Below are positions 11,576 through 57,055 of a DNA stretch of 64,000 nucleotides, piece after piece. A program made the position numbers and the translations under genes. Source of the DNA: Fidelibacterota bacterium. Lineage in GTDB: Bacteria > Fidelibacterota > UBA8477 > JABMPR01. How positions within the stretch are numbered: position 1 is the stretch's first letter; every line of letters starts with the position of its first letter. The notes under the pieces are model-generated. The model was given only the letters and a program-made list of their open reading frames with translations, had not been told where the DNA came from and ran no database searches. The stretch is from positions 7,143-71,142 of the forward strand of contig JABMQQ010000067.1 in the NCBI GenBank assembly GCA_013202495.1, in the 5' to 3' direction.

Positions 11576-11589
11576 ACGTTGATTTGTCT

Positions 11590-22608: not shown

Positions 22609-23391
22609 GTGAGCAAGCTAACAAGCGATAATTTAGAAAGCTGGACCGAGCATTTTCAAAAGGGCTGGCTGAAAAACTTTGTTGACACCAAGAGCATTGA
22701 CTGGAAGCTCTATAAATATGTAAGGAATGAGCAGACTGTGGCGGGGAAAGGGCTTGATTTGTCTAAAGCCCGTCTCCTGCTTGTCTCCTCTTCAGGTGCC
22801 TACTTGCCCTCTAAGGATAAGCCCTTCCATGCTGCTAACCTTTTGGGTGATTACACCATTCGCACCTTTCCTGCCTCTACGCCTTTTTCAGAGCTTGAAT
22901 ACGCCCATGATCATTATGATCAAACCGCGGTGAGAAAGGATGCTCAGGTACTGCTTCCACTGAATCATCTGCGAGACCTGGTGGATAAAAAAGTTATTGG
23001 CAGTCTGAGTGAGACGGTGGTCAGTTTTATGGGCTATCAACCCTGGGTGGGTCGAGTGATCAAAAAAACCCTGCCTGCTATCCACAAGATTGTACAAGAA
23101 GAAGCCATAGATGCTGTTTTGCTGGTACCCTCCTGACCTCTGTGTTCTCAATCCGTGGGATTGATCGCCAGAGCATTGGAAGAAGCCGGAATAAGGACAA
23201 CGTTGACCAGTTGGAATGCTGGGATTATCCGTGGGATCAAACCGCCTCGTGCCACCATAACTGCATTACAGCGAGGCATGACCCTTGGGCATCCCCATGA
23301 TGAAGCCCAACAAAAGCGGGTTCTTATGGAAACACTTAAATTACTTGAACTGGATGCACCAGTGGATCTTGTGCGTCTCAATGAGAAGTAA
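22609..23391 (+). CDS. GrdB/PrdB-family selenoprotein B-like protein, candidate selenocysteine at TGA 23134-23136
   Basis: Two ORFs (22609-23136 and 23155-23391) are in the same frame, separated only by TGA. Read-through gives ...AIDAVLLVPS-U-PLCSQSVGLIARALEEAGIRTT..., a UxxC motif in a family-like context. There is a hairpin 12 nt downstream. Confidence 0.6.
23148..23164 (+). promoter_or_regulatory. candidate bacterial SECIS hairpin
   Basis: TCAATCC GUG GGATTGA: a 7-bp stem with a G-starting apical loop. The loop lies 21 nt from the U of UGA. Confidence 0.4.
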
Positions 23392-39069: not shown

Positions 39070-39654
39070 TCAGAGCTTAAATCCAAGATTGAAAGTAAAG
39101 TGTACACTCAATGGTGGCAGTTCCCAATCAAATTGTTCACCATTCTTTGCTTTGAAGACGATGGGTCCACCACCCAGTGCTAACAAGAGAACAAAGCGCT
39201 CATTTATCGTCCATTTTCTACCAACTTCTGGTTCCAATGTAATAAAAGTCCACGCTGATTTTTCAATATCCAAGAATCTCATAAAGCCGCCTAATTCAGT
39301 AATCTCTGGATCTACTTCAGCATAATAAAGGCGTAATCCCAGACCATAGAACCGCTTGCAGTTTTTTGGTTGATAATAAAATGGCCACCTCTTGTTAATC
39401 CCGACAGAAAGAAATTTTTGCACGCCGAATTTTCTCGTTGGTGCATAGAAAGGGATGATATTCGCAAGGGTAATCAAATAATCGGTTTCCTTTAGCGTGA
39501 TCGAGTCTGAATAGGATAATTCCATTTTCACTATCCCAGACATGAGATCGTTGAATCCGATAGAAACATCTGTTGGTTGATTGATTGGTACAGCCCATGC
39601 GAAACTTACAACAACTGATATTATATAAAGATGTTTCATCTGATTTACCCCCAT
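39070..39654 (-). CDS. hypothetical outer-membrane beta-barrel-like protein
   Basis: Signal peptide, alternating beta pattern and a C-terminal ...FNLGFKL. The start may be the internal MKHLY. Confidence 0.5.
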   Translation of the reverse strand: MGVNQMKHLYIISVVVSFAWAVPINQPTDVSIGFNDLMSGIVKMELSYSDSITLKETDYLITLANIIPFYAPTRKFGVQKFLSVGINKRWPFYYQPKNCKRFYGLGLRLYYAEVDPEITELGGFMRFLDIEKSAWTFITLEPEVGRKWTINERFVLLLALGGGPIVFKAKNGEQFDWELPPLSVHFTFNLGFKL

Positions 39655-39757
39655 TTATTCAATATACCTAATGCGCTAGACCCATCTGCGTCCCCGGGGA
39701 CTATTGTGGGAGCCCTTGAATATTCTTCTGTGTATTACTCAATTGACCAGAACCCAT

Positions 39758-40810
39758 TTACAATTCATCTGGAGGAGGGGTCATGGATCTGAATGTCAGT
39801 TGTCTCTCTGTCCCGGTGAGTCGATTCATTACCCAGAGATGTCCGTTGGTGGTATCAAATACGGAGTAATCATGTTTTGAATACACAATTGACAACCCAT
39901 CAGGTGACCAGCTTGGCTCCAGGCCGCCATCTGATGTTAGTATCATAACATCTGTTGTGATGGTATCCTGTATGGCAATTTGAAAGCGCGTCTCATCAAT
40001 TACCCACGATTCAAATGCCACAAATTCTCCATCAGATGAAAAGGTTGGGTTCCGCGCTTCTGTCTCTGTAAAACTAAAGCGTTTCTGGTTCCGACCATTG
40101 GCATCCATCAAATACAATTGGGTATGTAAAGGGTCATCACCCCGGAGATTCTTGTGTGATATGATTCTTGATTTGGTAGGGTGCCAGGAAGGTCCCCGCC
40201 ATGCTCCATCATAAGATCGTGGAATACGAACTTGTTTGATATTCCCTCCCAGGGTATCCATGGTCCAAATGCTAAAGATGGACGACGTGCCCGATGATGC
40301 ATAAACAATCATGTTCTCAGTGGGATGTTGATGTGGTGACCAAATGCTGTGTCCTTCAGTTATGTGCTGCAGCTCGCCTGTATTGAGATTGTACTTGTTC
40401 AGCTTGCCTTCATGTACAAAGAGCAGGCTCCTGCCATCTGGGGTCCAGGAGGGGTCATGAGCCCAACCCGTTGCAATCATTTTACGTTGCCCACCCGCTG
40501 AAGGGATGATGTATATCCCCATTGAATCAACATCGGGATAACAGCCCCCATGTTCAGCAACTATTGACCCTCCATTATGATAGTAGGCTATCCAGGTTCC
40601 ATCAGGAGACCATGAGGGAGAATAGTCAATCTGCGGATAGGCTGGACTTTCTATGCCGGCATACCATTCTGATTTCTGGTCAAGATCAGGTGGTTCAACA
40701 AGATGAGAACAACCACTTGATATCAATATTGCGAATAACAAAACTAGCGCTGGGCCAATTGTCTTCCTGGCGGATCCAGCTTTAGACCGTTTGTTGAGTA
40801 CCACCATCAT
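39758..40810 (-). CDS. TolB-like PD40 beta-propeller lipoprotein
   Basis: Lipobox SSGC. Repeated SPSWSPDG / DPSWTPDG / GPSWHP / NPTFSSDG / EPSWSPDG motifs. Confidence 0.75.
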   Translation of the reverse strand: MMVVLNKRSKAGSARKTIGPALVLLFAILISSGCSHLVEPPDLDQKSEWYAGIESPAYPQIDYSPSWSPDGTWIAYYHNGGSIVAEHGGCYPDVDSMGIYIIPSAGGQRKMIATGWAHDPSWTPDGRSLLFVHEGKLNKYNLNTGELQHITEGHSIWSPHQHPTENMIVYASSGTSSIFSIWTMDTLGGNIKQVRIPRSYDGAWRGPSWHPTKSRIISHKNLRGDDPLHTQLYLMDANGRNQKRFSFTETEARNPTFSSDGEFVAFESWVIDETRFQIAIQDTITTDVMILTSDGGLEPSWSPDGLSIVYSKHDYSVFDTTNGHLWVMNRLTGTERQLTFRSMTPPPDEL

Positions 40811-42645
40811 TTTAAATATAAGACCTTCACAAACTGCGAATGGTTTTCAGTTTGAAGTTGAATAAGGTACATACCCGTACTGACATTTTTGCCTGAATGG
40901 TTCAACCCGTTCCAGTGAACTTGATATGCTCCAGCAGCTTGATTTGAGTCAACCATTTCTAGTACGGTTTGACCTGAAACATTGAAAACCGTCAGTTTTA
41001 TGTTTGAGGCATGGGGTAGGGTATAGGAAATGGTGGCAGTGGGATTGAATGGATTCGGATAGGCATGTAGACTGAAGCTTGAAGGTAAAACGGGGTGTTC
41101 ATTTATTGAAACTTGAATTGGACTGAGATCGCCCCAGGACGCCCCATTAATTTGGTAACCAATAAGGCTTTTAACTGCACCTGGATCCATAAACTGTGAT
41201 GAAAGACCAACACCATATCTCCAGGTAGAGCTACCGAATTCATCACCCTCTCTTAATAAGAGTGCAGGACTATCATCGATTAATTGATAAAGAAACTCTA
41301 TTTCCTGCTCTGGATTCGAATCTGAAAAAGAGACAGAAATAGCTTCTGAAGATGGAGCTGAATAGATGTTGGCACGATCAAGGACATGAGTGTACTTAGA
41401 AATTGTATCTACGGTTGCCAATCCACCATAAAGCTGGTAATCATGTCCCCGACGTTCGATGACATATTCCGTAAAATCTGCTAATTCGCTCACGGCAATC
41501 ACCTCTTCAGTGCTAACAGAATCGATATGGTGATATGTCTGAGCCCATTTCCATTTATTACCCAAAGCCAGAGGATAGAACTGCCTCAGATCAGATCGTG
41601 CATATCCGTTAATGGCAAAAGATAGAGTGTCTTCACTACTCAGCTGTTGTGGTGAATTATTGGTACGAATAATAAACCCAGAAGGATTGCCCGTATTCGC
41701 ATCAGAAAATGTTGGAGGAGAATAACCACCAGGGTACATAAATGTTTGCCACATGTGATCCGAAGGGTCCATGCTTTCCATATCATGGGAGGTCGTATCG
41801 CTCCAATTAATTGTATCCCCGGGCCCGAAGACAAACTTATCAAAATAAAAGGACAATTGATTTTCAGATTGATGAATAGAGGTGAAGGTCCATTCTGTGG
41901 GTGCATTTTCACCAACGAGACCCAAAACTTCAGCATCTATACGATAGGTTCGGGGCCAGACGTCTACAACAACTGGAAATTCATACTCCGAATTGTTGAA
42001 GCTCAAAGAAAAGGCAGGACCAGGATAGGTGATAATTGGAGAGGTCGGATTGCGATACAAAAACACAATCCATTTCGCCACACTGGGATCAAGCGCTCCC
42101 AGGCTAGGGGGATAGCGATAGATGACAACCTGGTATGGGTAGTTGGCAAACTGACGAACCACATTGAGGTTTTTGATGGCATTCCAGGCTGAATCAGCTG
42201 CCAGAATCTCAACAGTATCTACAAGTGAAATTCCAGTTTCCCGCCAATACTGAATAGATTGGGGTTCTCGGATGGAATCTTCTTGTACATAAAAAGAATC
42301 TGCAGGTATAAAGCTATCTGGTTTATAAAGCTCACCTTGTCCCATCCACACATAGGTACCATGAAAAACTGTATCTCCAGTACATGGATAGGTCATAATG
42401 GTATACCCAAAATCTGCCGCGGGCTGAACTTCAAGTTCGAGTGGGAACAGAACGGTGTCCACTTCCAGACAGGTTGGATAGTTGAGAATCGTCCCCTGCT
42501 CAAATTCCTTTGATTGATAATTAACAACAAAAAGACCAAATGAAACCGAGTCTTCGGGGAGAGTAATATACGATTGTGCTGATAGACTTAACGCCATGAG
42601 CAGCGTGGCTATTATTTTATTCATCATGTGGTGTCCAATAATCAT
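40807..42645 (-). CDS. secreted protein with T9SS-type C-terminal sorting domain
   Basis: The C-terminus is YPNPFNPTATISYTLP...KLTVFNVSGQ...GMYLIQLQ...VKVLYLK. The stop overlaps the next start (ATGA). Confidence 0.7.
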   Translation of the reverse strand: MIIGHHMMNKIIATLLMALSLSAQSYITLPEDSVSFGLFVVNYQSKEFEQGTILNYPTCLEVDTVLFPLELEVQPAADFGYTIMTYPCTGDTVFHGTYVWMGQGELYKPDSFIPADSFYVQEDSIREPQSIQYWRETGISLVDTVEILAADSAWNAIKNLNVVRQFANYPYQVVIYRYPPSLGALDPSVAKWIVFLYRNPTSPIITYPGPAFSLSFNNSEYEFPVVVDVWPRTYRIDAEVLGLVGENAPTEWTFTSIHQSENQLSFYFDKFVFGPGDTINWSDTTSHDMESMDPSDHMWQTFMYPGGYSPPTFSDANTGNPSGFIIRTNNSPQQLSSEDTLSFAINGYARSDLRQFYPLALGNKWKWAQTYHHIDSVSTEEVIAVSELADFTEYVIERRGHDYQLYGGLATVDTISKYTHVLDRANIYSAPSSEAISVSFSDSNPEQEIEFLYQLIDDSPALLLREGDEFGSSTWRYGVGLSSQFMDPGAVKSLIGYQINGASWGDLSPIQVSINEHPVLPSSFSLHAYPNPFNPTATISYTLPHASNIKLTVFNVSGQTVLEMVDSNQAAGAYQVHWNGLNHSGKNVSTGMYLIQLQTENHSQFVKVLYLK

Positions 42646-42753
42646 ACTTAACCCCCTCTATCAATCACATGTTGTCAACCAACCCAATTTCATCTGATCT
42701 ATTTCGTCTGTCGAACGTTGCGCCCATCACCTGCTACTATGTGTATGGGATTG

Positions 42754-43131
42754 TTATGTGTAAAATATAGCAGGGATTGCATAAAGAACTGCCCCTACTA
42801 GAAAAAATGCCAGGAAAGCTACTGACCCCCAATGTTTTAACTTGAAGAATACGATTTGCTCTATTGAACGAGCCACCCAAAAGAGCGTCATCAAGATGAG
42901 TAGGCTATGACCCAGAGCTGTTGAGAGTAGTTCATTGGTATGAGCGAGGGAAATATAGCTAAAGATGATAAACACAAAGGATAAGCTCAAATTCAAAACC
43001 TGCATGATGGCTCTATTTAAGAAAGACAAATTACGAAGATCATTTTTCCAGTCGAAGATGCGCCAAAACAACAGGTGAAATATCACCAATACGATGTTGT
43101 AGATACCACCTAACTTAATCAATACTTCCAT
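42754..43131 (-). CDS. hypothetical membrane protein
   Basis: 125 aa with four hydrophobic helices. Confidence 0.5.
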   Translation of the reverse strand: MEVLIKLGGIYNIVLVIFHLLFWRIFDWKNDLRNLSFLNRAIMQVLNLSLSFVFIIFSYISLAHTNELLSTALGHSLLILMTLFWVARSIEQIVFFKLKHWGSVAFLAFFLVGAVLYAIPAIFYT

Positions 43132-43179: not shown

Positions 43180-43704
43180 TTATATGTCATCCCCACCCAC
43201 AAACTGGTCAGCCAATTCATTCAGGGCGTCACCTTCAAGCCGTTGAACCGTCCACGCATCCATTGGTATTGCTCCCACTTCTCGGTAGAATTTCAGGGCT
43301 GACTTATTCCAATCGAGAACCCACCACTCGAAACGGCCGCATTTGCGTATGCGAGCAAGATTAGCAAGATAGGCAAGCATAACTTTACCAAGTCCCTTCC
43401 CGCGCATTTGTGGCTTCACATAGAGGTCTTCCAGGTAAATACCCGGCTGTCCTAGAAAGGTTGAGAAGTTGTGGAAAAAAAGTGCAAATGACACGGCCTC
43501 CCCCCCATAATATCCAAGCAGAACTTCTGCAACCTTGCGATCTCCAAACAAGGATTCACGCAATACTTCTTCGGTTGCAACCACTTCATGGGCAAGCTTC
43601 TCATATTCAGCAAGCTCATGGATAAATGAAAGAATGAGAGGAACATCATCCTCAACTGCTTCACAAATCACAAAATCAGGGATACCCGTTGTCACTGTCA
43701 TCAT
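43180..43704 (-). CDS. GNAT N-acetyltransferase (diamine/SSAT-like)
   Basis: LEDLYVKPQMRGKGLGKVML and RFEWWVLDWNKSALKFY. Confidence 0.8.
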   Translation of the reverse strand: MMTVTTGIPDFVICEAVEDDVPLILSFIHELAEYEKLAHEVVATEEVLRESLFGDRKVAEVLLGYYGGEAVSFALFFHNFSTFLGQPGIYLEDLYVKPQMRGKGLGKVMLAYLANLARIRKCGRFEWWVLDWNKSALKFYREVGAIPMDAWTVQRLEGDALNELADQFVGGDDI

Positions 43705-43727
43705 CTCTTTCCTTTGTTGGCAGGATT

Positions 43728-44294
43728 TCAGCCAGGTATTCGGAGTCCAGCACCGACTGAAATTTCAAGTCCTCCAGGCTCCATAAACCGTGCAAAATCG
43801 GAAACATCTGCTGAAAGACTTCCAGACTGATAGTGAGACTTCCCACCATGTAATGCAAAGCCATAACCGAGATGTCCATAAACTCGGATAAAGCCCACTT
43901 GAAATCTAAGACCAGTACGCAAAGTAAATAATGATGCGGGATCAATGCGATAAACTGCCGAATCCAGATTAACGGTAACATTGAGATTTGACAATCCACT
44001 GGAGCTAGATAAATACATCCCGCCAAAAGAGGTAAACATTTTGTCGGGGCTCAATACATATTTCACACCAGCACCAGCTTTGAAACCTGAAAAACTAAAT
44101 CCCAGGCCACCTGTTACCACAGTATGTGGGTTAAAATAGAAACCACCTTCTACACCAACACCCAGGGGTGATCCCCAACCCATGATGCCACCGAGTTCTA
44201 TTTTGTCGTAACTAATATCAGCCTCGTGTGCGAAGAGAGGTGTTAGCAATAGGCTCAGGGTAAGAATCAACCATTTCGTGCGATTATAGATCAT
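43728..44294 (-). CDS. small outer-membrane beta-barrel protein
   Basis: Signal peptide and Gly/aromatic-rich alternating strands; 188 aa. Confidence 0.55.
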   Translation of the reverse strand: MIYNRTKWLILTLSLLLTPLFAHEADISYDKIELGGIMGWGSPLGVGVEGGFYFNPHTVVTGGLGFSFSGFKAGAGVKYVLSPDKMFTSFGGMYLSSSSGLSNLNVTVNLDSAVYRIDPASLFTLRTGLRFQVGFIRVYGHLGYGFALHGGKSHYQSGSLSADVSDFARFMEPGGLEISVGAGLRIPG

Positions 44295-44303
44295 CTATTT
44301 CTC

Positions 44304-45269
44304 CTATTTTCCCTTAGGTGGAGCTGATCCTTTCAGATCAATTATGGTTGGTTCCAGGACAATCAGAGACACTCTTTCCATACTCGCATTATCTTTGGCG
44401 CTAAACAGAAAAGGCAGTATTGAGCCCAGTAATGGAAATTTCCTTTTTTTCGATTGTTCAGTGGTTGTATTGAAGGCACCCAGTAGAAATGGTTCGGCAT
44501 CTTTCACGATCACCCGATTGTTTAATATCTGTCCAGATTCGATAGGGCTTCCTTCGAGATAGCCACTGATGAAGGTATACTTTGCCTCAATTTCCAGAGT
44601 CATCATATCATCTTGTCCTATGGAAGGCGTGACCTCCAGGGACAACCCCGAGTTGAGCTCCTGTGTTTCATATAGATTGGTGAAGCTGGAGTAGCGTGAA
44701 ATGTAGGTTACATGCTCTCCATCAAAGATGCTGCCTTTCTGATTGTTAGTGGTCACTATCTGGGGAGAACTAACAATTTTTGCGATTCCCGTTTCAAGCA
44801 GGACATTGAGAAACCCAGGCTCCACATAATTGTTTCTGGCTGATACTTGCAGCTGAGAGCCACCGGTATTATAATCTGGTTGATCCGTCCTGAATTGGGT
44901 CGAAAAATGTAGAGCCGAGGAAAAATCAAGTCGCAAGCTATTAATAAATATTGACCAATCGATTCCACTATCAATTATATCCTGCCTGGTGGTTTCGATG
45001 ATTTTTACGCTAATAATTATCTGCCTGGGAGGAACATCCAGGAAGTTTATCAGCCCTTCCATTTCATCTAGCTCTAATTGAGTACCCTTTAGCAGAATGG
45101 TATTATTTGATTCATTGAGAACATATTTTTGCTGAATATTATCTGTAAAACCAGATGAGTTGAGTCCACTTTCTAAATCAGAGGGCGATATATATTTTAG
45201 CTCCACCACCTTTGATTCCATTCCAAACAGCGACTGAAGCATGATTACAACCAGCAAAATTCGTTTCAT
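44304..45269 (-). CDS. minimal secretin-family outer-membrane channel protein
   Basis: Signal peptide and one secretin_N-like domain (VELKYISPSDL...LKGTQLELDEMEGLINFLDVPPRQIIISVKIIE). The secretin core has AKIVSSPQIVTTNNQKGSI, LSLEVTPSIGQDDMMTLEIE and KFPLLGSILPFLF. Confidence 0.7.
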   Translation of the reverse strand: MKRILLVVIMLQSLFGMESKVVELKYISPSDLESGLNSSGFTDNIQQKYVLNESNNTILLKGTQLELDEMEGLINFLDVPPRQIIISVKIIETTRQDIIDSGIDWSIFINSLRLDFSSALHFSTQFRTDQPDYNTGGSQLQVSARNNYVEPGFLNVLLETGIAKIVSSPQIVTTNNQKGSIFDGEHVTYISRYSSFTNLYETQELNSGLSLEVTPSIGQDDMMTLEIEAKYTFISGYLEGSPIESGQILNNRVIVKDAEPFLLGAFNTTTEQSKKRKFPLLGSILPFLFSAKDNASMERVSLIVLEPTIIDLKGSAPPKGK

Positions 45270-45322
45270 GGTTTCTCCTTTGTGTTTCTAACGTCCCCGG
45301 GCTTTCCAGCTCAAAAGGGCAT

Positions 45323-46063
45323 CTATTGAATTATTTGAAAAACAACCCTCACATGCTGTTCTATGGATATTTTTCGAGGGTAAAATCTTGAAATTGCTCC
45401 ATCAGAATCATCCTTAATACTAAAGCTTGAGTTAAATGGAGAAGCATATTGTTCATGAACCATCCTCCGAGAGGCAACCGTCACACCCCCAAGCGCTGAA
45501 CTTTGTGGAATCAATTCCTCAATCCTCGTCACGGGTCCGACTTTAATGGACATTGCTTTCGCCATCTCCTGAGCTTTAGCCTTTGCAGCATCAAGGGCTT
45601 TTTGTCGAGCCTTAGTTTTGGTTTCATTGGCAGCAGAAGAGGAGTATGTAACATTCAAGATGTCTTCGATTTCGTTTCGCCCGAGTTCCAATATGATTGA
45701 TTCAACTTGATTCACAGGCAAATCAGTGATGGTAACAGTGGTTGAAGCTTTGAAATTGTCAGTCCTAGTAAAAGGAGACCCACCCCAATAGTTTTCACCA
45801 CTCTGAAAATCAGAGATGAATACATTCTCAGGTTTGGCTTCATACTTCTTGAGTTTATCGATAGTACCATCCACCCGCTGCTTCATCTTATTGTAGGCGT
45901 CATCAAGTGATTTGCCTGTCTCTGAGACACCAAATACAACGGAAACCTCATCAGCACGAATATCAATGTTGGCGGACCCATAAACTTCAATACTTAGCCT
46001 GTCCAGATCGCCACCAAATAATAACATTGGAATGAGCAATAAAATAAAAGCAAAAATTTTCAT
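45323..46063 (-). CDS. SIMPL (DUF541) domain periplasmic protein
   Basis: Signal peptide, then LSIEVYGSANIDIRADEVSVVFGV...ARQKALDAAKAKAQEMAKAM, typical of the SIMPL family. Confidence 0.75.
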   Translation of the reverse strand: MKIFAFILLLIPMLLFGGDLDRLSIEVYGSANIDIRADEVSVVFGVSETGKSLDDAYNKMKQRVDGTIDKLKKYEAKPENVFISDFQSGENYWGGSPFTRTDNFKASTTVTITDLPVNQVESIILELGRNEIEDILNVTYSSSAANETKTKARQKALDAAKAKAQEMAKAMSIKVGPVTRIEELIPQSSALGGVTVASRRMVHEQYASPFNSSFSIKDDSDGAISRFYPRKISIEQHVRVVFQIIQ

Positions 46064-46120
46064 GGTTCCCTCATTTCTAAAAATGTGCCTTATTTATCAG
46101 CCAGTTTGAGCGCAGACGTA

Positions 46121-46155
46121 TCCCCCTAGGCGGGAGTAGACTGGCCTTTGTTGTA
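46121..46155. repeat. stop-proximal intergenic element with weak GC hairpin
   Basis: tccccctaggcgggagtagactggcctttgttgta. It ends 11 nt from the stop of the BNR gene. Confidence 0.6.
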
Positions 46156-46166
46156 GGGGCACAATA

Positions 46167-48320
46167 TTACTTTAACACGACGACTTTCTTCGATTCAGTC
46201 CACTGACCCGAAACCAATTGAACAATGTAGACACCTGAGCTAACCACTACTCCACCCTGGTTCGTACCGTTCCATGAGAGGGTATATTCTCCTGAATATT
46301 GCTGGGTAATCTCACGGCTCCAGACTTGCCTCCCAACCAGGTCATAAACAGTTATTATCAAATCTGCCTGTTTAGGAATTGAATACTTTATGTATGTGGA
46401 TGGGTTTAGTGGATTTGGATAGCAAGCGATTAAAGAAGGCTTGAGTTCTTGCCCTCCTCCGTATTTAGTTTCGATACCTTGTGGCAAAGTAGAACGGTAA
46501 ATTCCAAGTGAATCAAATCCTAAATACAGATAACCTTCAGTATCAATCACCATGGTTAAAAGATCTTCCCCGCTCTCTGGTAAGTTCACATTTTGAGGAA
46601 GCCATGATTGACCAAGATCATTCGATCGATATACACCTGCGGTAGTAGACATATACAGATACTCACCTCCATCACTCAGTATCGTATTGATTAATTCACT
46701 ATCCACGTGGGAGTTTTCCCAACTTTCACCATCATTATAGGATATATCCAGACGGCTGCTGTCGGTAAAAGAACCTACATAGATATTGTCGGAATTGTCG
46801 ATGAAAAGTGTAGTGATCTGATCACCTGCCATGGAAAGAGTCCAACTAATCCCACTATCGTTTGATCTGCCGAGACCCAGGTCGGTTGCCAGGAAAAGGT
46901 CGCCCATGCTATTAGATGTTACCAAGCCTGCCTCCATTCGAGATATCTCTAAGATAGGCTCCCAAGAACTTGTTCCTATTGGGGCTCGTTCCAGTCTATC
47001 TCTAAAACTCAAGTATAAATAACCATCGCCTGGATCAGAAACTGCACGAAGATTGTAATCAGAATACTCATATTGCCAATTTGGATGGTCATCTGTCAAG
47101 CCGATAAGTTTGTCATCACTAAAATCATAATCCTGGTATAGGTATGATTCTTGGGAGGTTGCATAAATGTCACCATTCGGCAGGGTTATCATCGAAGTTA
47201 TATCTGTGTGTGTGCTTATTGTCGACCACGAGTTCCCTGCGTCATCTGACAGAAATATTCCACAGCGGTCATCCAGTCTGCGGGTTTTAGCACCTGCCAG
47301 GAGATGGCCATTTTCAGTGATGCACAGACTTTGTATCGAGTTCGTACCTAATCCTGCCTGCAGCCAGCTATCACCATCATCGACGGATCTGATGATTCCA
47401 CCTCCTCGCGTCCCGGCCAGCAAAGTTCCCTCTGGTGTTTCCTGTAGGCAGAGTATCAAGCCATTGGTTTGCCCAGTAAGAGTCCACGAGCTACCCTGAT
47501 CATCTGATTTGTGAATACCGAAGCCAGGTTGATTGCTATTTTGATATCCACCACCACCCACAAGTATTTCATCATTGGAAGTCACTAGTATAGAAGCCCT
47601 AACCCCCCAGGGATCAGTCACATAAATTTCTTCCCAAGTTTCACAATCATCCAACGATCTGAGCATAGCCCCATTCCAGGAGCTCACAAATATGCCTCCA
47701 GCGCTATCCATATCAATCCCGCTTAAAGCGTAGAAAAGATCTGACACATATTCCCAGGTATTTCCATTATCGTTGGATCTGAAGACTCCTATATCCATTC
47801 CAATAAAGTAAACGATCTGTGAAGGATCGACCCACACCATGCCTGATCTCGGGTAGAAGTAAAGATCGATATTAAAATCATGCATGAGCTGGAAGTTATC
47901 ATCGGGATAGGTAGATCGATACAGCATGCCATCCCAGGTCGCAGCAAACACATCACCTGCTGCATTGATGTCCACAGACTCAATATCCAACCAATCAAGA
48001 GCTATTCTTTGAAAAGACTCGCCCTGGTCAACTGATCTGAAGACCCCATAATATCCCCCGGCATAGATAGAACTATCAGGATGAATAGCCAAATCATTCA
48101 AGGAGGGATATGTTGAGGCTGTAGACCAGGACACTCCATCATCGTATGAACGATGAAACCCTCTCTGTGTGCTTGCTATTATGAACCCCTCAGGATGGAC
48201 TTCAATATCGTATACATAGCCATAACCTGGTCCTGCGACTGGTTGCCAGGCTATATCAGCTCGGAGTTCGATAGGAACAAATTGAACTATTACCAGAAAG
48301 AGCGCTAGTAAATTTATCAT
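46167..48320 (-). CDS. BNR/Asp-box repeat (sortilin/Ycf48-like propeller) protein with T9SS C-terminal domain
   Basis: About 10 SxDxGxSW-type boxes (SYDDGVSWS, SNDNGNTWE, SDDQGSSWT, SVDDGDSWL and others). The C-terminus is YPNPLNPSTYIKY...VVVLK. Confidence 0.8.
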   Translation of the reverse strand: MINLLALFLVIVQFVPIELRADIAWQPVAGPGYGYVYDIEVHPEGFIIASTQRGFHRSYDDGVSWSTASTYPSLNDLAIHPDSSIYAGGYYGVFRSVDQGESFQRIALDWLDIESVDINAAGDVFAATWDGMLYRSTYPDDNFQLMHDFNIDLYFYPRSGMVWVDPSQIVYFIGMDIGVFRSNDNGNTWEYVSDLFYALSGIDMDSAGGIFVSSWNGAMLRSLDDCETWEEIYVTDPWGVRASILVTSNDEILVGGGGYQNSNQPGFGIHKSDDQGSSWTLTGQTNGLILCLQETPEGTLLAGTRGGGIIRSVDDGDSWLQAGLGTNSIQSLCITENGHLLAGAKTRRLDDRCGIFLSDDAGNSWSTISTHTDITSMITLPNGDIYATSQESYLYQDYDFSDDKLIGLTDDHPNWQYEYSDYNLRAVSDPGDGYLYLSFRDRLERAPIGTSSWEPILEISRMEAGLVTSNSMGDLFLATDLGLGRSNDSGISWTLSMAGDQITTLFIDNSDNIYVGSFTDSSRLDISYNDGESWENSHVDSELINTILSDGGEYLYMSTTAGVYRSNDLGQSWLPQNVNLPESGEDLLTMVIDTEGYLYLGFDSLGIYRSTLPQGIETKYGGGQELKPSLIACYPNPLNPSTYIKYSIPKQADLIITVYDLVGRQVWSREITQQYSGEYTLSWNGTNQGGVVVSSGVYIVQLVSGQWTESKKVVVLK

Positions 48321-48490
48321 TTTGTATACCCCATATTATTGTTACGAATCATTGGCCTAATTTTTTATCACCTGATTTGATTAGGAAGGTATTGTAAAGA
48401 TAATGTGTGATTTTCATGTTTGAATCCCCCTCAATGCTCATTTTAACGATATTGGTTACTTCTACACCCATAAAATTAGTGTCGGTTCTG

Positions 48491-49602: not shown

Positions 49603-50997
49603 TTACAATACATACTTAAGTGTCAGGGATGGTCGAATTGTATTCACAAAAGCTTCTAGAAGTAAGTTTTTGGTAAACGGATAAGAAGCCAGAAGCGAAA
49701 TATGAATGTTTGTATCCTTTTCAGAATATCCTTGAGTAATGGGACCTGTCAATCCCCGATCAATTTCATAATACATCGAGGTATGATACTTACGATACAC
49801 AACATATTCACCATCATAAACGAAATCATAAGACAAGTGTTCATATTGGAGTATAATTCCTCCCGCCAGCTGCATCCCATTCGACAATAAATACAAGGGT
49901 GTAGTAACATTTAGCGTCAAATCAAAGTATTTGATATTCTCCGTTTGAAACACCTCGTAGAGATACTCCTCTTTTCTAAAGCTATATGTACCGGTTGAAT
50001 AGATGCTCGTATTATCGCCATCTCTCTTACGAGTTTGATTTATCAACGGGATATTGGACGAAAGGTCAAAATTGATGCCTGAGAACGGTCCCTTCCATTG
50101 GGAAAACCTCAGGGCAAATCCCAGACCCACATGGATCGATGGGCGTTTTATGGCATCGGTTCTCTGTCTGTCCATCATCATGTTGGGTATGGATGCATCA
50201 TAGCTTAAATCGAGACTGCTTGAGGTGGGAAAAGCACCTAAAGAGATCTGAAAATCGTGTTTCTGAATATAGGACTCCTTGGTATACTCGATCAACAAAT
50301 CCACGATACTGAACTGGAACGATTCGAGGATTGAATTACCATTGAAGTCAAAAAGATACCAATAGTTCAAAGCAGAAAACAAAACCTCAGGAGAAGGTGG
50401 TCTTTTGCCAGATTCAAGATGAACAATAATGTCAAAATATTGGGATAGCTCTTTCATCTCTATGTCAGCTCTCAGGGAAGCATAATCTTCATCAGGATTG
50501 AACTGTATTTCTTTTTCCGGCGAATAGTAAGCACATGCAAAAAAATCCTGAAGATTTAAATCAAGATCAAATGAATCACAGGAATCCTTCGATTCCTTCA
50601 CTTCCATATTGATTAATTTTTGTGAGATTTGGCTTTGAAGTTTATTATGAACATAGTTCGCCTCAAAATGGTTGTCTGTAAGTGTTCGGATTCTTTCCAC
50701 CCACTGATTTCGTTTAGAATAACTCTCGATTTTCAATTTGTTCAAGGTACACTGAATAGCTGACGCGGTGTCTTTACTGTCAGCCACACTGTATTGATTG
50801 TTTAATTGTCTAATGTACAGGTAAATAATATCTGGATTGATCATTCCGTATGTATCTATGAGTTGGAGTACCGCTTCCTTTTTATCTGGATCTTCTAAAA
50901 TAGTCTCCGGGAGATAATCCTCAAAAGCGCTTCCATTTGCGATCGAGATTGATGCAAGAAGTAATGTCACGAGTGAAACAGAATTTTTCAAAAACAA
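49603..50997 (-). CDS. secreted protein of unknown function, paralog of 16406-17803
   Basis: Signal peptide. For the shared blocks, see the feature at 16406-17803. Confidence 0.6.
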   Translation of the reverse strand: MFLKNSVSLVTLLLASISIANGSAFEDYLPETILEDPDKKEAVLQLIDTYGMINPDIIYLYIRQLNNQYSVADSKDTASAIQCTLNKLKIESYSKRNQWVERIRTLTDNHFEANYVHNKLQSQISQKLINMEVKESKDSCDSFDLDLNLQDFFACAYYSPEKEIQFNPDEDYASLRADIEMKELSQYFDIIVHLESGKRPPSPEVLFSALNYWYLFDFNGNSILESFQFSIVDLLIEYTKESYIQKHDFQISLGAFPTSSSLDLSYDASIPNMMMDRQRTDAIKRPSIHVGLGFALRFSQWKGPFSGINFDLSSNIPLINQTRKRDGDNTSIYSTGTYSFRKEEYLYEVFQTENIKYFDLTLNVTTPLYLLSNGMQLAGGIILQYEHLSYDFVYDGEYVVYRKYHTSMYYEIDRGLTGPITQGYSEKDTNIHISLLASYPFTKNLLLEAFVNTIRPSLTLKYVL

Positions 50998-51009
50998 GTC
51001 ATGTTCTCC

Positions 51010-51531
51010 TTAGAAAAATAATGTGGCGTATAGACTGGTTCCTGTATTGATCAATAGCTTGTCAGGATATCCTAAACGAAATGAGTTTTTGTCAGGTTTA
51101 ACAATATTTACCTGTGCCGAAATTCCGATAGCAAAACTAGAATCAAAATTCTTTTCAACGCCTACTTGGGGACTTACAAGCAGGTCTGTCTGTGTCTCGT
51201 ATGATGTTGGAAACACAGAGTCTACGTCAGACTTAGATTTCATCATGGCCAATCCTAACCCGACATATTTAGAGATAGAGGACTTGACTTGATATGACCG
51301 CATGACGAACCCCAGTGAAACATCTGACCCGATATCTTCCACTGAAGCAAATCCAAATGCAGGTGCAATTGAGAACGTATTCCCAAAGTAGATTGGCAAT
51401 ATGATATCCAGGTGAGGGTTGGTTAGGCTTGCGGTTAGTCCAACACGAACGTTTGAAGTCTCCTTCACCTCATCTTGAGCAACTACGAACACCGAAACAA
51501 GAACGACGACATACACCCATTTAACCTTCAC
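51010..51531 (-). CDS. small outer-membrane beta-barrel protein
   Basis: Signal peptide, 173 aa, alternating pattern and a terminal ...LYATLFF. Confidence 0.55.
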   Translation of the reverse strand: MKVKWVYVVVLVSVFVVAQDEVKETSNVRVGLTASLTNPHLDIILPIYFGNTFSIAPAFGFASVEDIGSDVSLGFVMRSYQVKSSISKYVGLGLAMMKSKSDVDSVFPTSYETQTDLLVSPQVGVEKNFDSSFAIGISAQVNIVKPDKNSFRLGYPDKLLINTGTSLYATLFF

Positions 51532-52105
51532 GTGACACCCCTATAATTTCAAAGTTGTTGGCAAAATCCTGCCATAATACGTTACCATTTATAGAAACAA
51601 ATATTCTGTAAATTCCCCGAGGTAATGGTTCCCCTGCGTCATTTAAGCCATCCCATGGATATGAGTAATATCCAGCTCGAACTGTGTCTGCTTCCCAAAT
51701 AGTCCTCACTACCGGGCATTGAACCTGAAAGAGTTCGCTTGAAATGCTGGATACGGTGGACTCATACTCCTCACCAGGCGCCAGCGCTTTGGCAGCCCAC
51801 ATTTTCCCGTTTAACTGTAATTCAGCCAACGAGAAGGAAATGATCACGCTACTTGTGCTGGGATTTGGGTACAAAGAGGATAACCTGAAGTAGCTACCTG
51901 GAATGTCACCTCGTGTTATCTCCTGGTTTCCATCAGGATTTCCCCAAGCCCCCAAATGGTATCCATTGGGATCGGTGATCACAATCCCAGGACTGACATA
52001 TATATCAGAGATTGAACTTATGGGTGCTTGAGTAATGTTTTCATCGGAACATCCTAGAATGGAAATAATAAATACTAGAAACCATGATATCTGCCACACT
52101 TTCAT
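51521..52105 (-). CDS. lipoprotein with FlgD-Ig/T9SS-CTD-like fold motifs
   Basis: Lipobox ILGC, LYPNPSTSSVIISFSL and YSYPWDGLNDAGEPLPRGIYRIFV. Confidence 0.55.
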   Translation of the reverse strand: MKVWQISWFLVFIISILGCSDENITQAPISSISDIYVSPGIVITDPNGYHLGAWGNPDGNQEITRGDIPGSYFRLSSLYPNPSTSSVIISFSLAELQLNGKMWAAKALAPGEEYESTVSSISSELFQVQCPVVRTIWEADTVRAGYYSYPWDGLNDAGEPLPRGIYRIFVSINGNVLWQDFANNFEIIGVSREG

Positions 52106-52143
52106 TGGGTCACCTTATACTTTTCATGTCATGTAAGTTCATA

Positions 52144-53292
52144 TCATTTTGTATACTCAAGAGAAACCGAAAGCACATCTCTGTCATATTGTGCGTCTCT
52201 CTTGAAAACTTTCCCCGTCCCAGAGAGAGCTAGGTTGAAATGTTCGTTAACACTGTATGAAGCACTTAGGATGGGATAGACGCTTCTGTATCTAAAGTCA
52301 TCATTAAAATGTAGATTTTCACCATTCGTATATTCAGGATAATTGAAAGACAACAGGCCGAACCCGATAAGTATATTCGGGTTCATCTTGAAATGAGCTA
52401 CACCCGAATAGTTGAGGACTTCTATCTCGTTGGATTGGTATCCTTCCCACACAGAATGATCAATGCTTACATCCAGATCAAGCTTATTTGAAATTTTTAA
52501 TAAGAACCCTGCACTTAGTTGAGGGTGTTGAGTCGCCTGGTAAACATATCCAGGGAAATCCCAAAGGATAGCTGGCAAGTCGTCACCCTTGAAAAACAAT
52601 TCCTCAAAGCCCAAATTGTAGAACAGCCCTATTACAAATATGTCCTTGAAATTAAAGGTGGTACCGAAACTACCACTATTCACCTCGTGTGAAGCATGGA
52701 TTTCATCTTCCCAGACTTTTCTATATACGAAGATCTGATTATTCGACACGCTCACTCCAATGCTTAGTGATGAGTTCAATCTACTAAGGGCTAATTTTTT
52801 CCCAATTATTATAGAATACTGATCCTGGTGTGTCATTTCTAGAATATTGAAAGAATTACCGGTTCCCTCAGGCTCTACAAGCGTAGTGATCTCAATATCA
52901 TCATCAATTTTTAGCTGGTAGGCATTATTATAGCCAATGCCAAAATGAAATCCTTCAAACTTGAAACTGGCAGCAAAGGACCGTGGTACCGTTCTGAAAT
53001 CCCGGTATATAAGTTTTCCATTAGAAAAAATTAATTCACTAGGTGATCTAAGCATATAGCTGAGTCCAACAGTCAGCAATTCATAGTTCGTGACTGCTGC
53101 CGGATTGGATTGCACTATAGATGAAATAGGTGGTTTGACTACCGGGGAGAAAGCATTGGTGGTATAGAGACGCATATACCTTGCCGACCAATTTCCTAAA
53201 ACTTCATTAGGTGCTAGGTTCCTTTTGTTTTGCCCTATAACGCTACTACAAACAAGAAGAATCATCAAAGCACGCATTCGAAAACTAGTCAT
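52144..53292 (-). CDS. outer-membrane beta-barrel-like protein, unknown function
   Basis: Signal peptide, 382 aa, beta-rich. An NPAA motif near the N-terminus is vaguely PorP/SprF-like, which is speculative. Confidence 0.5.
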   Translation of the reverse strand: MTSFRMRALMILLVCSSVIGQNKRNLAPNEVLGNWSARYMRLYTTNAFSPVVKPPISSIVQSNPAAVTNYELLTVGLSYMLRSPSELIFSNGKLIYRDFRTVPRSFAASFKFEGFHFGIGYNNAYQLKIDDDIEITTLVEPEGTGNSFNILEMTHQDQYSIIIGKKLALSRLNSSLSIGVSVSNNQIFVYRKVWEDEIHASHEVNSGSFGTTFNFKDIFVIGLFYNLGFEELFFKGDDLPAILWDFPGYVYQATQHPQLSAGFLLKISNKLDLDVSIDHSVWEGYQSNEIEVLNYSGVAHFKMNPNILIGFGLLSFNYPEYTNGENLHFNDDFRYRSVYPILSASYSVNEHFNLALSGTGKVFKRDAQYDRDVLSVSLEYTK

Positions 53293-53339
53293 CCATTAAT
53301 CCATATCATTTTCCACTCCCCCTTGAGTATCAGTTCAAT

Positions 53340-53354
53340 CCCCGCTAAGCGGGG
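53340..53354 (-). terminator. GC hairpin CCCCGC-tta-GCGGGG (terminator candidate)
   Basis: 6-bp GC stem. The same hairpin occurs at 63568-63582. The U-tract is poor. Confidence 0.35.
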
Positions 53355-53403
53355 TAAATTTGTCTGTCGTGTTCTGAAAGAACGTAGACCACGATTCCCC
53401 TCC

Positions 53404-53670
53404 TTAGCCTCCTGACCCTTCTAATTCTTCAACTCTCACATAGAGGGACCTCAGAGCATGCACAAACATGAGCTGAAAGCCGACAATAAAAAGTACATAG
53501 CTCCAACTTTCAAGGAGGTTGTTTTCTGTGAGATTGGTCAGTAACGACATCGTAAATAGGGGTAGGCCTAGAAGCGTGATTATGTATCGCAAATTTGTCC
53601 CTACCATCGTTCCAGCCCATCCGATTGGGTTGGTAAAAATATTCGCGACTAACATTGGTTTATTTTTCAT
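53404..53670 (-). CDS. hypothetical small membrane protein
   Basis: 88 aa with two to three hydrophobic helices. Confidence 0.4.
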   Translation of the reverse strand: MKNKPMLVANIFTNPIGWAGTMVGTNLRYIITLLGLPLFTMSLLTNLTENNLLESWSYVLFIVGFQLMFVHALRSLYVRVEELEGSGG

Positions 53671-53730
53671 AATCTACCTTTCTAATGAACTCAGTATGAG
53701 CGTAGATGGGCTCAAACCCCGCTGAATGCT

Positions 53731-54306
53731 TCAAAGAATGAACCGTAAAATAAAATTCAACTTTAGCTCTCTTTTTTGTTCGCTGGATGGCGTTCTGTTC
53801 GAATCCCCCACATTAAAAGCCTTCCAGCGCAATTGATAAATTGACTCTGCCCCGATACTAAAATGAGGTGAGAAGAAATACTCACCGCCAAGCGTCGGAC
53901 CGATGAACTGCATCTCGTTTTTTGAGTTTTTATCCTGCGCCTCGGGTTCATTCCACTCAGTTATATATTTTGTCATCCCGAAGCCACCACGTAAGCCATA
54001 GTAGAGGACAGTCTTCATGTAGTTCTTCTTGGCAAAAACCCCGACCCCGATGATGGTTTCACTACTGGATCTGTCTGAATAACCCTCAAGTGAATTATTG
54101 ATATATACATGGTAAAATGAAGGCTCGATCATGAAACTCCCAAAATCAATGGGGATGAAAAAGTGCGGATAGCTGTATCTATAGCCAGTCAATTCAGAAA
54201 GGTCATGAAGTGCTGCACCAAAGCCCAAATGAACCTTTTTATCATCCATGTATTTTGTTTGTCCGAAACTTGAAACGGATAGCATGATCAACAACAGTAA
54301 GCGCAT
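53731..54306 (-). CDS. small outer-membrane beta-barrel protein
   Basis: Start set at ATG 54306 (MRLLLLIMLSVSSFGQ signal peptide, G-rich RBS upstream). Terminal ...NFILRFIL. Confidence 0.55.
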   Translation of the reverse strand: MRLLLLIMLSVSSFGQTKYMDDKKVHLGFGAALHDLSELTGYRYSYPHFFIPIDFGSFMIEPSFYHVYINNSLEGYSDRSSSETIIGVGVFAKKNYMKTVLYYGLRGGFGMTKYITEWNEPEAQDKNSKNEMQFIGPTLGGEYFFSPHFSIGAESIYQLRWKAFNVGDSNRTPSSEQKRELKLNFILRFIL

Positions 54307-54492
54307 TGCTCCCCCCTTTCCTTCTTCGTACAGTTTGATCGACATTGAGTTCCCCTGTTTTAAAAAGGCTTTCTAACGCTCCAAGTTGTTCTACTCAAAA
54401 GGATAACTTTTAATGGCTGTCACGTTAAAGGTATCACTTTTAACGGCTTCTCCACATCAAACCTGGGTCTTCAGCTCAACGATCACTTCAGC

Positions 54493-55608
54493 CTAAATGA
54501 TATCCAATTCATAAACACGATATCGTCGCAAGGGCTTGGCTCCCAGCTTTTCGATAGCGTTGACCATGGGCCAGTTATCTTCCAGCACGTAGTTAATCTC
54601 TATCCACAAATCCTTTGCATTGAGCGATTCATATAGCGCTCGATAAAGGAGGCTGTCCACGGCCTTACCCTGAAATTCAGGGATGACCCCCAGGGCGAAC
54701 ATACGATAGCGCCGCAGCCGCGGGATGCCCCACAGCAGCTTGATAAAACCAAAGGGAAACAAGCGCCCTTTCAATCCCTTGAGCAGGAAATTGATATCTG
54801 GGAGGGCAACGGCAAATCCGATGGGGCGTCCATTTTTATCCTCGGCAAAGAGCACACCCCGGGGTTGTATGATTTGCTTCATATCCTGTGCGATGGCATT
54901 GGCCTCGGCTTCCGTCACAGGAGAGAAGCCCCAATTTGCAACAATGCTCTTATTGGAGAGTTCAGTGAAGATTTGAACGTCCCGATCGTATTGCTTCATG
55001 TCAATGGGTCGAATGCTGACCCCATAGCGTTTGGCCACTGAATCAGTCAGTGTCAGGATGCGCTGGGGGATTTTATAGCCCTCTGCCATTGAGATAGACC
55101 AGCATAAAAGGTCCTTGGCCTTGTGCAGGCCGAAATCAACCAGGAATTCATTGTAATAGGGAGGATTGTATGGGGCCATGAGAACCGGGGAAGGCTCAAA
55201 TCCCTCCACCACCATACCGATTTCCTGTGAAACAAAACTCCAGGGCCCGCGCATCAGTGTGCAGCGTTGTTCCTTCAACCAATTCCTGGCAGCTTCCAGC
55301 AACAGTCCCGATGCCGTCTTGTCTGAAATGCATTCGAAGTAACCAAAGTGACCAATACGTTCTTTCCAGAAATCAACGGCTATGTTGTCCACAAATGCTG
55401 CGATGCGTCCGATGGTTTTCCCCTGGTCTTTTAACAGGAAGAGCTTGATGTCACAGTGTTCAAGAAAAGGATTTGAACTGGCATCAAATTGCTTGCGTTG
55501 TTCGCTCCGTAATTGAGGGATCCACACAGAATCATGGCGATATAATTCATAGGGAAACTCGATGAACTCAAGCCGCTCACGCTGTGAATTTACCGGATAA
55601 ATATTCAT
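54493..55608 (-). CDS. GNAT-fold N-acyltransferase-like protein (371-aa family)
   Basis: N-terminus MNIYPVNSQRERLEFIEFPYELYRHDSVWIPQL... and C-terminal FALGVIPEFQGKAVDSLL resemble a conserved uncharacterised GNAT family. Confidence 0.55.
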   Translation of the reverse strand: MNIYPVNSQRERLEFIEFPYELYRHDSVWIPQLRSEQRKQFDASSNPFLEHCDIKLFLLKDQGKTIGRIAAFVDNIAVDFWKERIGHFGYFECISDKTASGLLLEAARNWLKEQRCTLMRGPWSFVSQEIGMVVEGFEPSPVLMAPYNPPYYNEFLVDFGLHKAKDLLCWSISMAEGYKIPQRILTLTDSVAKRYGVSIRPIDMKQYDRDVQIFTELSNKSIVANWGFSPVTEAEANAIAQDMKQIIQPRGVLFAEDKNGRPIGFAVALPDINFLLKGLKGRLFPFGFIKLLWGIPRLRRYRMFALGVIPEFQGKAVDSLLYRALYESLNAKDLWIEINYVLEDNWPMVNAIEKLGAKPLRRYRVYELDII

Positions 55609-56074: not shown

Positions 56075-57055
56075 TCATCCATCATCAAGATGCTTTGTAA
56101 GAATCGGAAGTTTCTTGCCGTCTCCTCTTTCTCTCCAAAGATTAATATTACCACTACCAACTTCTGCAACCAGAGTACGCGTGTCCCTGCTTGACAGCCC
56201 AAGCATTCCTCCATGTGCGGTAAAGACAAGAGTTGTGTCTTTCTTCTCAACGTCCAACCAAGCCCAGAGGTCACTCCCTCCTCGGTATTCAGAACCGCAC
56301 CTCAGGAAGTATCGTTGTAATCTGTATGGAAGTTGTAGTACGATTGTATTCAGAGCATCCATGTTTACATCTCGTGGATAAAAACATGTTTTATATATGC
56401 CCTGTTTCTCAACAACGTCTCCATCTTGCTCAACCCTAGTCAGAATTGGAGTCGTGGAACATTCCACACACCCAAACTCAAGAAATAAGGAATCTTTATC
56501 TACAAAGGTGTCCAAATTGGTTTCCCTGCGCAGTGAGTCTAAATATTGCTGATCTATTATATATGCTTTATGCCGTTTTTTGAGGGAGACGTTGCGGCTT
56601 GCAGAATAGAATAATGTATCCAACTCCTGAACCTGTTTCCAAATATTGTCAAGCTCCATAAACTTTGCTGTATCAATCGATAGGTCATCATAGATGGAGA
56701 AATAGATCGAGTGTAAACGCTTCCTATCCCACGAAAGGGTACTATCCATTTTCATCATTTTCACACACTCTGAGGAAAGCACAGTTTTGGTTGGCTTGAT
56801 AAGATTAACCGCTCTTTTGAGCTGTACTGGTGCAGGAACAGAAGCAGGCTCTGGAATGGGGGCGGGATGAGGGTTTGGCCCTACGGCAGTAAGACAGGAG
56901 CTTAGACTCAATATGGAAAGCAGTATTGATGCTCTTTGGGTAATTTTGTTTAGTTTCGTCATTTTTCTCGTTCTGATTAATTCATTCATCTGTTTAGCTA
57001 ACGCTTTAAGCTTGAGCCCGTCTATGCCCAGGCCAGGTGAAACAGGCTTCATCAT
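56075..57055 (-). CDS. hypothetical lipoprotein, translationally coupled to the M23 peptidase gene
   Basis: The ATG overlaps the upstream stop (ATGA). An internal MTKLNKITQRASILLSILSLSSC signal/lipobox is present, so the true start may be ATG 56962. Confidence 0.55.
   Translation of the reverse strand: MMKPVSPGLGIDGLKLKALAKQMNELIRTRKMTKLNKITQRASILLSILSLSSCLTAVGPNPHPAPIPEPASVPAPVQLKRAVNLIKPTKTVLSSECVKMMKMDSTLSWDRKRLHSIYFSIYDDLSIDTAKFMELDNIWKQVQELDTLFYSASRNVSLKKRHKAYIIDQQYLDSLRRETNLDTFVDKDSLFLEFGCVECSTTPILTRVEQDGDVVEKQGIYKTCFYPRDVNMDALNTIVLQLPYRLQRYFLRCGSEYRGGSDLWAWLDVEKKDTTLVFTAHGGMLGLSSRDTRTLVAEVGSGNINLWRERGDGKKLPILTKHLDDG

Follow-up and report, generated by a model that had tools for sequence, protein, structure and literature searches.

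Our understanding of secretins is confined to their part in larger assemblies, namely type II secretion systems (T2SS), type IV and Tad pili, type III secretion systems (T3SS) and the machines of filamentous phages. The N0 domain is the accepted link of a secretin to the inner membrane. In every characterised secretin, to our knowledge, it is a filament, a needle or a phage pushed through from the inner membrane that opens the gate. The nearest 'minimal secretin' architecture, compared here by description only, is that of the mitochondrial GspD of some protists. This T2SS-derived protein is said, in work by Horvathova et al. of 2021, to be reduced to roughly the N3 domain and the secretin core. 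The present analysis concerns a 321-aa protein encoded on the minus strand of a 64-kb stretch of DNA (the window) from a Fidelibacterota bacterium (assembly GCA_013202495.1, contig JABMQQ010000067.1, positions 7,143 to 71,142). Judged by its sequence, it is a member of the secretin superfamily that lies outside every system-specific family tested. It is taken, with somewhat more confidence than doubt, to be a functional minimal secretin, the likeliest use of which would be as the outer-membrane gate of an unlinked filament-type machine, the SIMPL gene and the genes for type IX secretion system (T9SS) cargo beside it being accidental neighbours. The gene and its parts are as follows.

44304-45269, minus strand: minimal secretin, 321 aa, with Pfam Secretin and Secretin_N matches; the central gene of this analysis
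45222-45269, minus strand: signal-peptide-like N-terminus of the secretin (residues 1-16, MKRILLVVIMLQSLFG), read from the translation; a helix in the model
45021-45218, minus strand: single N3-type ring-building domain of the secretin (residues 18-83), from PF03958, the model fold and the alignment to GspD N3
44337-45020, minus strand: secretin core (residues 84-311), from the profile alignment to GspD 330-571 and PilQ 387-717

The initial annotation had described a secretin with a signal peptide, a single Secretin_N-like domain and a secretin core, and this description was borne out. In searches with hidden Markov models, PF00263 (Secretin) matched residues 159-311 with 81.8 bits (cut-off 27.5), and PF03958 (Secretin_N) matched residues 20-83 with a borderline 28.4 bits (cut-off 28.2). 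That the latter region is N3 is further supported by the AlphaFold model, in which it folds as beta-alpha-beta-beta-alpha, and by its profile alignment to GspD N3 (residues 241-330). The N-terminus is signal-peptide-like and carries no lipobox cysteine. In the AlphaFold monomer, for which the mean confidence (predicted local distance difference test, pLDDT) was 74, an N-terminal helix is followed by the beta-alpha-beta-beta-alpha domain at residues 18-77 and by long hairpins of the double-barrel type at residues 179-256 and 261-311. When this model was compared with the PDB by Foldseek, the top 40 matches were secretins only (GspD, PilQ, InvG, pIV, BfpB and RcpA), with E-values down to 1.7e-15. 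A profile made of the protein and 27 relatives was further aligned to solved secretins and matched 23 of those in the PDB. It aligned end to end, N3 and core together, with residues 241-571 of E. coli GspD (E 4.6e-34), the counterpart of the core portion being GspD 330-571; it also aligned to PilQ of V. cholerae (276-569) and of P. aeruginosa (387-717).

The core includes the outer- and inner-barrel strands, two gate segments and the amphipathic loop motif VP.LG.ILPFLFS, and the lip loop at residues 113-148 is variable and modelled with low confidence. In the family alignment, 31 positions are invariant, including G184, G208, P215, G246, Q247, N251, P279, G282 and F289, and several of them map to both GspD gate regions and to the loop motif. 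By analogy with established secretin structures, these conserved segments would be the gates and the membrane-anchoring amphipathic helical loop. Neither Pfam nor the profile alignment revealed an N0/STN, N1, N2, AMIN or C-terminal S domain; there are about 17 residues ahead of N3 and about 10 after the core. The open reading frame (ORF) is already maximal at 321 aa, so that no N-terminal extension can be hidden. It is intact and is preceded by a strong ribosome-binding site, AAAGGAG, 6 nt upstream. All five system-specific NCBIfam models scored below their cut-offs: GspD (TIGR02517, 97.6 bits against 351), PilQ (TIGR02515, 102.2 against 284), SctC (TIGR02516, 91.5 against 238), MshL (TIGR02519, 80.7 against 250) and HofQ (NF010083, 63.5 against 554). 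The top score, that of the PilQ model, spanned residues 13-310 and was yet under the cut-off.

Among the known systems, GspD/PulD of the T2SS (PDB 5wq7 and 6hcg) gives the top fold matches, and its N3 and core align over the whole of the 321-aa protein, in which the gate segments and the amphipathic loop motif are retained. The protein may be likened in its working to the C-terminal two-thirds of GspD or PilQ. Unlike GspD, it has none of N0, N1, N2 and the pilotin-binding S domain, is half as long, falls far short of the GspD model and has no gspC-M genes near it. The PilQ and HofQ proteins of type IVa pili and competence systems (PDB 6w6m and 6ve2) are alike in their best-scoring model and in the alignment to V. 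cholerae PilQ. The 321-aa secretin differs from them in lacking AMIN, N0 and an upstream pilMNOP. Even the short, 430-aa secretins of the PilQ type that were found in a genome scan follow pilM/N/O, unlike the present family. The filamentous-phage protein pIV (PDB 7ofh) is also a small secretin that needs neither an S domain nor a pilotin; it retains N0, however, and is phage-encoded, whereas the short family is chromosomal. The mitochondrial GspD differs in being eukaryotic and in its reported co-occurrence with GspE/F/G homologues. A further comparison is offered by the Bacteroidetes 'T2SS', a system resembling type IVa pili, known from Cytophaga (CHU_3191-3201) and F. johnsoniae (Fjoh_0611-0622) (PMC5553014, PMC6668835). 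It uses a secretin and occurs in T9SS-bearing organisms of the same superphylum (PMC5553014, PMC6668835). Its secretin (Fjoh_0618 in F. johnsoniae; PMC5553014) is clustered with an ATPase, a platform protein and pseudopilins, while the genes of the 321-aa family stand alone. In Denise et al. 2019, secretins figure as components that clustered systems have co-opted, and the Bacteroidetes 'T2SS' is singled out as peculiar, though clustered (PMC6668835). A literature search on orphan, minimal or stand-alone secretins and on secretins or pili of Marinimicrobia returned nothing relevant, and solitary secretins lacking N0 were described in no paper found.

The 321-aa protein has relatives in many genomes. 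When 5.8 billion proteins were searched, 87 matches were obtained. Nearly all are of 320-380 aa and stem from metagenome-assembled genomes (MAGs) of Marinimicrobia, KSB1 and WOR-3, and they are either unannotated or automatically named GspD, PilQ or HofQ. Among 1.84 billion cluster representatives, about 35-40 were full-length members of the family (325-373 aa), compared with 16,761 secretin-like representatives at E <=1e-10. A scan of one genome per GTDB species placed members, with ORFs mostly of 320-390 aa, in Neomarinimicrobiota, Cloacimonadota, WOR-3, KSB1, Stahlbacteria, Zixibacteria, Eisenbacteria, Ignavibacteriota and unclassified bacteria belonging to the FCB (Fibrobacteres-Chlorobi-Bacteroidetes) group. 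In tblastn, members scored 141-268 bits, as against at most 87 bits for the other intact full-length secretins of the scan, with the exception of one 473-aa KSB1 protein of intermediate score (116 bits). On these sequence comparisons, the short secretins form a discrete family across the phyla of the FCB superphylum. The proteins ranking just under the family in the profile search were of another kind, being giants of 2000-5500 aa encoded outside the window (P0118, P0125, P0127-P0133 and others); in each, 10-24 stretches match the profile and a secretin core lies at the very C-terminal end, and they look like giant secretins with multiple N-domains.

The surroundings of the family genes were studied at 43 non-redundant loci, where ORFs were called up to 10 kb on either side and all proteins were clustered. 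No conserved neighbour was observed, the non-secretin clusters being common to at most seven of the 43 loci, and those that recurred were generic (ABC ATPases, sensor kinases and T9SS cargo). Among 137 immediate neighbours (two genes per side), no Pfam family occurred more than five times, and no pilus or T2SS family was present among those listed. No pilin, ATPase or platform gene was found within 10 kb at about 40 family loci, nor were phage genes seen near the secretin in the window or at 40 loci. A scan for prepilin N-termini and PilB/GspE Walker motifs gave none in the window or the family loci; these motifs occurred solely at the loci of conventional secretins from the genome scan. Both neighbours could be seen at 32 loci, and at 25 of these the secretin has no gene on its own strand within a distance of 60 nt. 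Two conventional loci served as positive controls. At one (L060), a 432-aa secretin lies downstream of PilM, PilN and PilO; at the other (L056), a 431-aa secretin with STN (N0) follows a pilin and PilM-like, T2SSM-like and T2SSC/PilP-like proteins. Since real partners were revealed at both, the neighbourhood approach is able to detect them. At the second control, the T2SSC/PilP-like protein is an HR-domain partner, and the secretin encoded there has N0; the short family has neither. The family gene is therefore single and usually monocistronic, and was never seen beside genes of type IV filaments, T3SS or phages. An enrichment of T9SS cargo beside the secretin was also considered and dismissed, as FlgD_ig was found in only five and Por_Secre_tail in three of the 137 immediate neighbours, against nine tail-bearing genes out of roughly 60 in the window.

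The genome scan also brought up a second unusual secretin locus of FCB bacteria (L067:5908-10831, and likewise L055, L063 and L058), which is found in MAGs of Cytophagia, Calditrichaeota and KSB1 and has no pilus genes. Its secretin of about 430 aa has STN, found in L067 as in the second control, together with Secretin_N and Secretin. It is preceded by a conserved trio, namely a 225-aa protein, a 549-aa WxLIP_PGBD-like protein and a 405-aa protein that combines a lamin-tail domain with a sorting tail of the T9SS type. One KSB1 MAG (Zod_Metabat.436) has both this locus and a member of the short family (L032).

In the window, four minus-strand ORFs span 43180-46063 with spacers of 53, 9 and 23 nt, exactly as first annotated, and a fifth gene runs in the same direction. 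The features around the secretin are listed below.

45323-46063, minus strand: SIMPL/DUF541 protein, 246 aa (PF04402), inside the variable island 45318-48490
43728-44294, minus strand: OMP188, a 188-aa lineage-restricted secreted protein, possibly an outer-membrane protein, which starts 9 nt past the secretin stop
43180-43704, minus strand: GNAT acetyltransferase, 174 aa (PF00583), in the locally conserved block
42754-43131, minus strand: 125-aa hydrophobic, apparently multi-pass membrane protein; the co-directional fifth gene, which closes the block common to the closest relative (L013)
46167-48320, minus strand: BNR/sortilin-type propeller, 717 aa, with a T9SS C-terminal sorting domain (Pfam); second gene of the variable island
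45295-45316, minus strand: 22-nt intergenic motif TTTTGAGCTGGAAAGCCCGGGG, which adjoins the island boundary and occurs once in the window

The SIMPL gene was correctly named, as PF04402 matched over its full length (profile 1-205/205, E 2e-28, 100.3 bits against a cut-off of 25.2). The acetyltransferase had been called SSAT-like. This did not hold, since the SSAT/PaiA model NF053587 gave 25 bits against a cut-off of 250 and only generic GNAT domains came above their cut-offs (PF00583, E 3e-15). The label 'beta-barrel OMP' for the 188-aa protein was too firm: it has a signal-like N-terminus and its AlphaFold model is all-beta, yet the barrel is unproven because Pfam, NCBIfam and PHROG searches gave no match and the model, made with few homologues, is unreliable (pLDDT 39). 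The 125-aa membrane protein likewise matched no family in these three collections. T9SS cargo lies on both flanks, in the form of the 717-aa propeller and a 612-aa protein, each with Por_Secre_tail, and T9SS sorting tails were detected by Pfam on nine of the roughly 60 window proteins. Partner and phage genes had been said to be absent from the window, and they remained so: the Pfam search of nearly all ORFs of >=110 aa, together with precomputed calls, gave no family of T2SS, type IV pilus, Tad, competence or phage in the 64 kb, and the motif scan of the window gave no prepilin N-terminus and no PilB-type Walker box. These families were also absent from a further 19 kb, so that 83 kb of one 210-kb metagenome contig were scanned in all. 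A promoter and terminator scan of the block, which does not cover FCB promoters, returned counts similar to those of shuffled sequence, and the spacers were uninformative.

The closest genome is a Black Sea MAG, 'Candidatus Neomarinimicrobiota bacterium BS150m-G71' (L013), the secretin of which is about 97% identical to that of the window. By blastn, the two share a collinear backbone that is interrupted by insertions and deletions. OMP188 (86%), the GNAT (94%) and the 125-aa protein (94%) are collinear with the secretin in both. The 3.2 kb at 45318-48490, which hold SIMPL and the 717-aa T9SS gene, correspond to 585 bp in the relative, where an unrelated 162-aa lipoprotein (L013:9448-9936) is encoded directly upstream of the secretin. 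This lipoprotein carries the lipobox FMGC, its C-terminus is glycine-zipper-like, and it gave no family match; its small size and its place beside a secretin recall a pilotin, but it is not conserved. The segments 39648-42687 and 51043-54348 are missing from the relative as well. The genes for T9SS cargo (FlgD_ig and Por_Secre_tail) and their neighbours occupy strain-variable islands between conserved core genes. A near copy of the 22-nt motif was found in the relative at about 9372-9420, directly after an IMPDH-like gene, and this fits independent insertions flanking an ancestral junction of IMPDH and secretin. The motif may mark that junction or a regulatory site.

When 92 loci were searched by tblastn, SIMPL, OMP188, GNAT and the 125-aa protein were found only in the window copies and, SIMPL excepted, in the closest relative. 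No homologue of SIMPL, OMP188 or the GNAT lies within 10 kb of the secretin at about 40 other family loci. OMP188 itself makes up only four clusters among 5.8 billion proteins, and a 66%-identical homologue is flanked by genes for an alcohol dehydrogenase and an amidohydrolase, with no secretin there. The secretin, OMP188, GNAT and 125-aa genes thus form a conserved, probably co-transcribed block within a narrow Marinimicrobia lineage only. SIMPL and the T9SS-cargo genes belong to variable islands and adjoin the block by accident.

Two marine metatranscriptome assemblies hold contigs that are 90-95% identical to the block. One contig of 1363 nt (43478-44840) runs from GNAT across OMP188 into the secretin, of which it includes the 3' half, and others cover the 5' end of the secretin and the junction of GNAT with the 125-aa gene. 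These contigs point to transcription, and to a probable co-transcription of secretin, OMP188 and GNAT. SIMPL is covered by no contig of the two assemblies, and the contig that reaches the secretin start runs on into upstream sequence of the type seen in the Black Sea relative. When the window was compared with that relative, the ratio of nonsynonymous to synonymous substitution rates (dN/dS) came to 0.057 in the secretin, which is thus under strong purifying selection, and to 0.17 in OMP188, 0.13 in GNAT and 0.07 in the 125-aa protein.

As to its role, the 321-aa secretin is predicted to assemble as a double-walled beta-barrel pore of 12-15 subunits in the outer membrane, with a closed periplasmic gate. 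As it has no S domain, it would be inserted there without a classical pilotin, and as it has no N0/STN, the usual N0-HR contact (of the GspC/PilP type) to an inner-membrane platform would be impossible. The gate would serve a type IV pilus, a T2SS-like or a DNA-uptake machine encoded at an unlinked locus, and this machine, docked without N0, would push it open from below. Service to such an unlinked machine is ranked first because a filament, needle or phage does the opening in all secretins characterised so far. Its probability is only moderate, since no such machine was seen and since the solitude of the gene across phyla is unlike any characterised system. Several points weigh against it. 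The machine is an assumption drawn from the working of characterised secretins, and no type IV filament gene was found in the 83 kb of this contig. Characterised secretin genes are nearly always clustered with at least some of their partners, and a solitude kept up in eight phyla speaks for use in some other way. Further, the Secretin_N match barely clears its cut-off, and the metatranscriptome contigs come from a sister strain and could be contaminating DNA. The same solitude in about 40 genomes, the missing N0/STN docking domain and the empty 83 kb would favour an autonomous channel, that is, a gated pore of large bore in the outer membrane that works without any filament machine in the inner membrane and is used for release or uptake of periplasmic or extracellular macromolecules or as an organiser of outer-membrane vesicles and tubes. 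This, the main rival, is regarded as a possible but rather unlikely explanation. No function is known for a closed gate that lacks an opener, the conservation of the gate segments implies that some partner opens them, and the mitochondrial GspD with N3 and core reportedly works with GspE/F/G. The broader proposal, that the phylum-spanning secretins without N0 are self-sufficient gated outer-membrane channels, independent of filament, T3SS and phage machines, is held to be doubtful in about the same degree. From the initial annotation, which had proposed a stand-alone minimal secretin with dedicated periplasmic and outer-membrane partners, it is the first half that survives: the secretin is genuine and short, and throughout the family it has no pilus, T2SS or phage genes near it.

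The second half, in which SIMPL, the secretin and the 188-aa protein, as a pilotin-like factor, would form a dedicated export or uptake system in one operon, is very improbable, having been largely refuted by the comparison of gene contexts. It drew on the tight spacing, and the single metatranscriptome contig across GNAT, OMP188 and secretin and the collinearity of these three genes in the closest relative agree with it. Nevertheless, that relative has a lipoprotein gene in place of SIMPL and so lacks the full block, which exists only in the window copies; SIMPL has no metatranscriptome contig; OMP188 is confined to its four clusters and can occur away from any secretin; and some 40 other genomes have none of these genes near theirs. 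SIMPL and OMP188 were hence dropped as dedicated partners, and the four-gene block was rejected as a system. Descent from a phage would explain why the top PHROG match is the M13 protein IV family (phrog_1012, E 2.9e-26, profile 108-401/403) and why pIV is among the Foldseek matches, the gene being then a domesticated or resident export secretin, or a host gate kept for the extrusion of inoviruses. Yet no relative was present in the 2.9 million viral contigs of IMG/VR, no phage genes accompany the family, the gene is part of the chromosomal backbone conserved between the two strains, and the profile scores for GspD and PilQ exceed that for pIV; such an origin was judged very unlikely. Decay into a functionless remnant of a longer secretin could account for a length far below that of canonical secretins and for scores well under all the NCBIfam equivalog cut-offs. 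It is scarcely credible in view of the low dN/dS, the short architecture with 31 invariant positions kept across phyla, the intact ORF with its strong ribosome-binding site and the presence of the secretin in metatranscriptome assemblies.

This secretin family has no N0 and was never seen encoded beside a machine, and yet it is conserved, under selection and expressed in eight phyla, most of them uncultured. Either filament machines couple to this secretin by an unfamiliar route, or the secretin pore is usable alone. The latter, if true, would mean that T9SS-bearing FCB bacteria put the secretin fold to a new use, for example, in the uptake or release of macromolecules or in the biogenesis of outer-membrane vesicles or tubes. 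As a secretin that is minimal by nature, with about 305 residues in its mature form, the protein could also lend itself to structural and biophysical studies of gating and of assembly independent of a pilotin. For annotation, the names GspD, PilQ and HofQ given by current pipelines are unsuitable for the short-family genes.

A few other features of the window were observed. A run of minus-strand ORFs of 464, 173, 194, 382, 204, 371 and 326 aa (49603-55608 and 56075-57055) has almost no Pfam matches; it lies between T9SS-cargo genes, and its portion 51043-54348 is the one absent from the Black Sea relative. The 175-aa ORF at 22609-23136 has a match to no more than the C-terminal third of the GRDB profile (222-345/347), the selenoprotein B family of glycine/sarcosine/betaine reductase; it may represent a domain that stands alone or a gene that is truncated. 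The region 5102-12556 is an ordinary housekeeping cluster of the 2-oxoacid dehydrogenase complex, with genes for dihydrolipoyl dehydrogenase, lipoate-protein ligase B, a fused E1 alpha/beta, E2 and lipoyl synthase.

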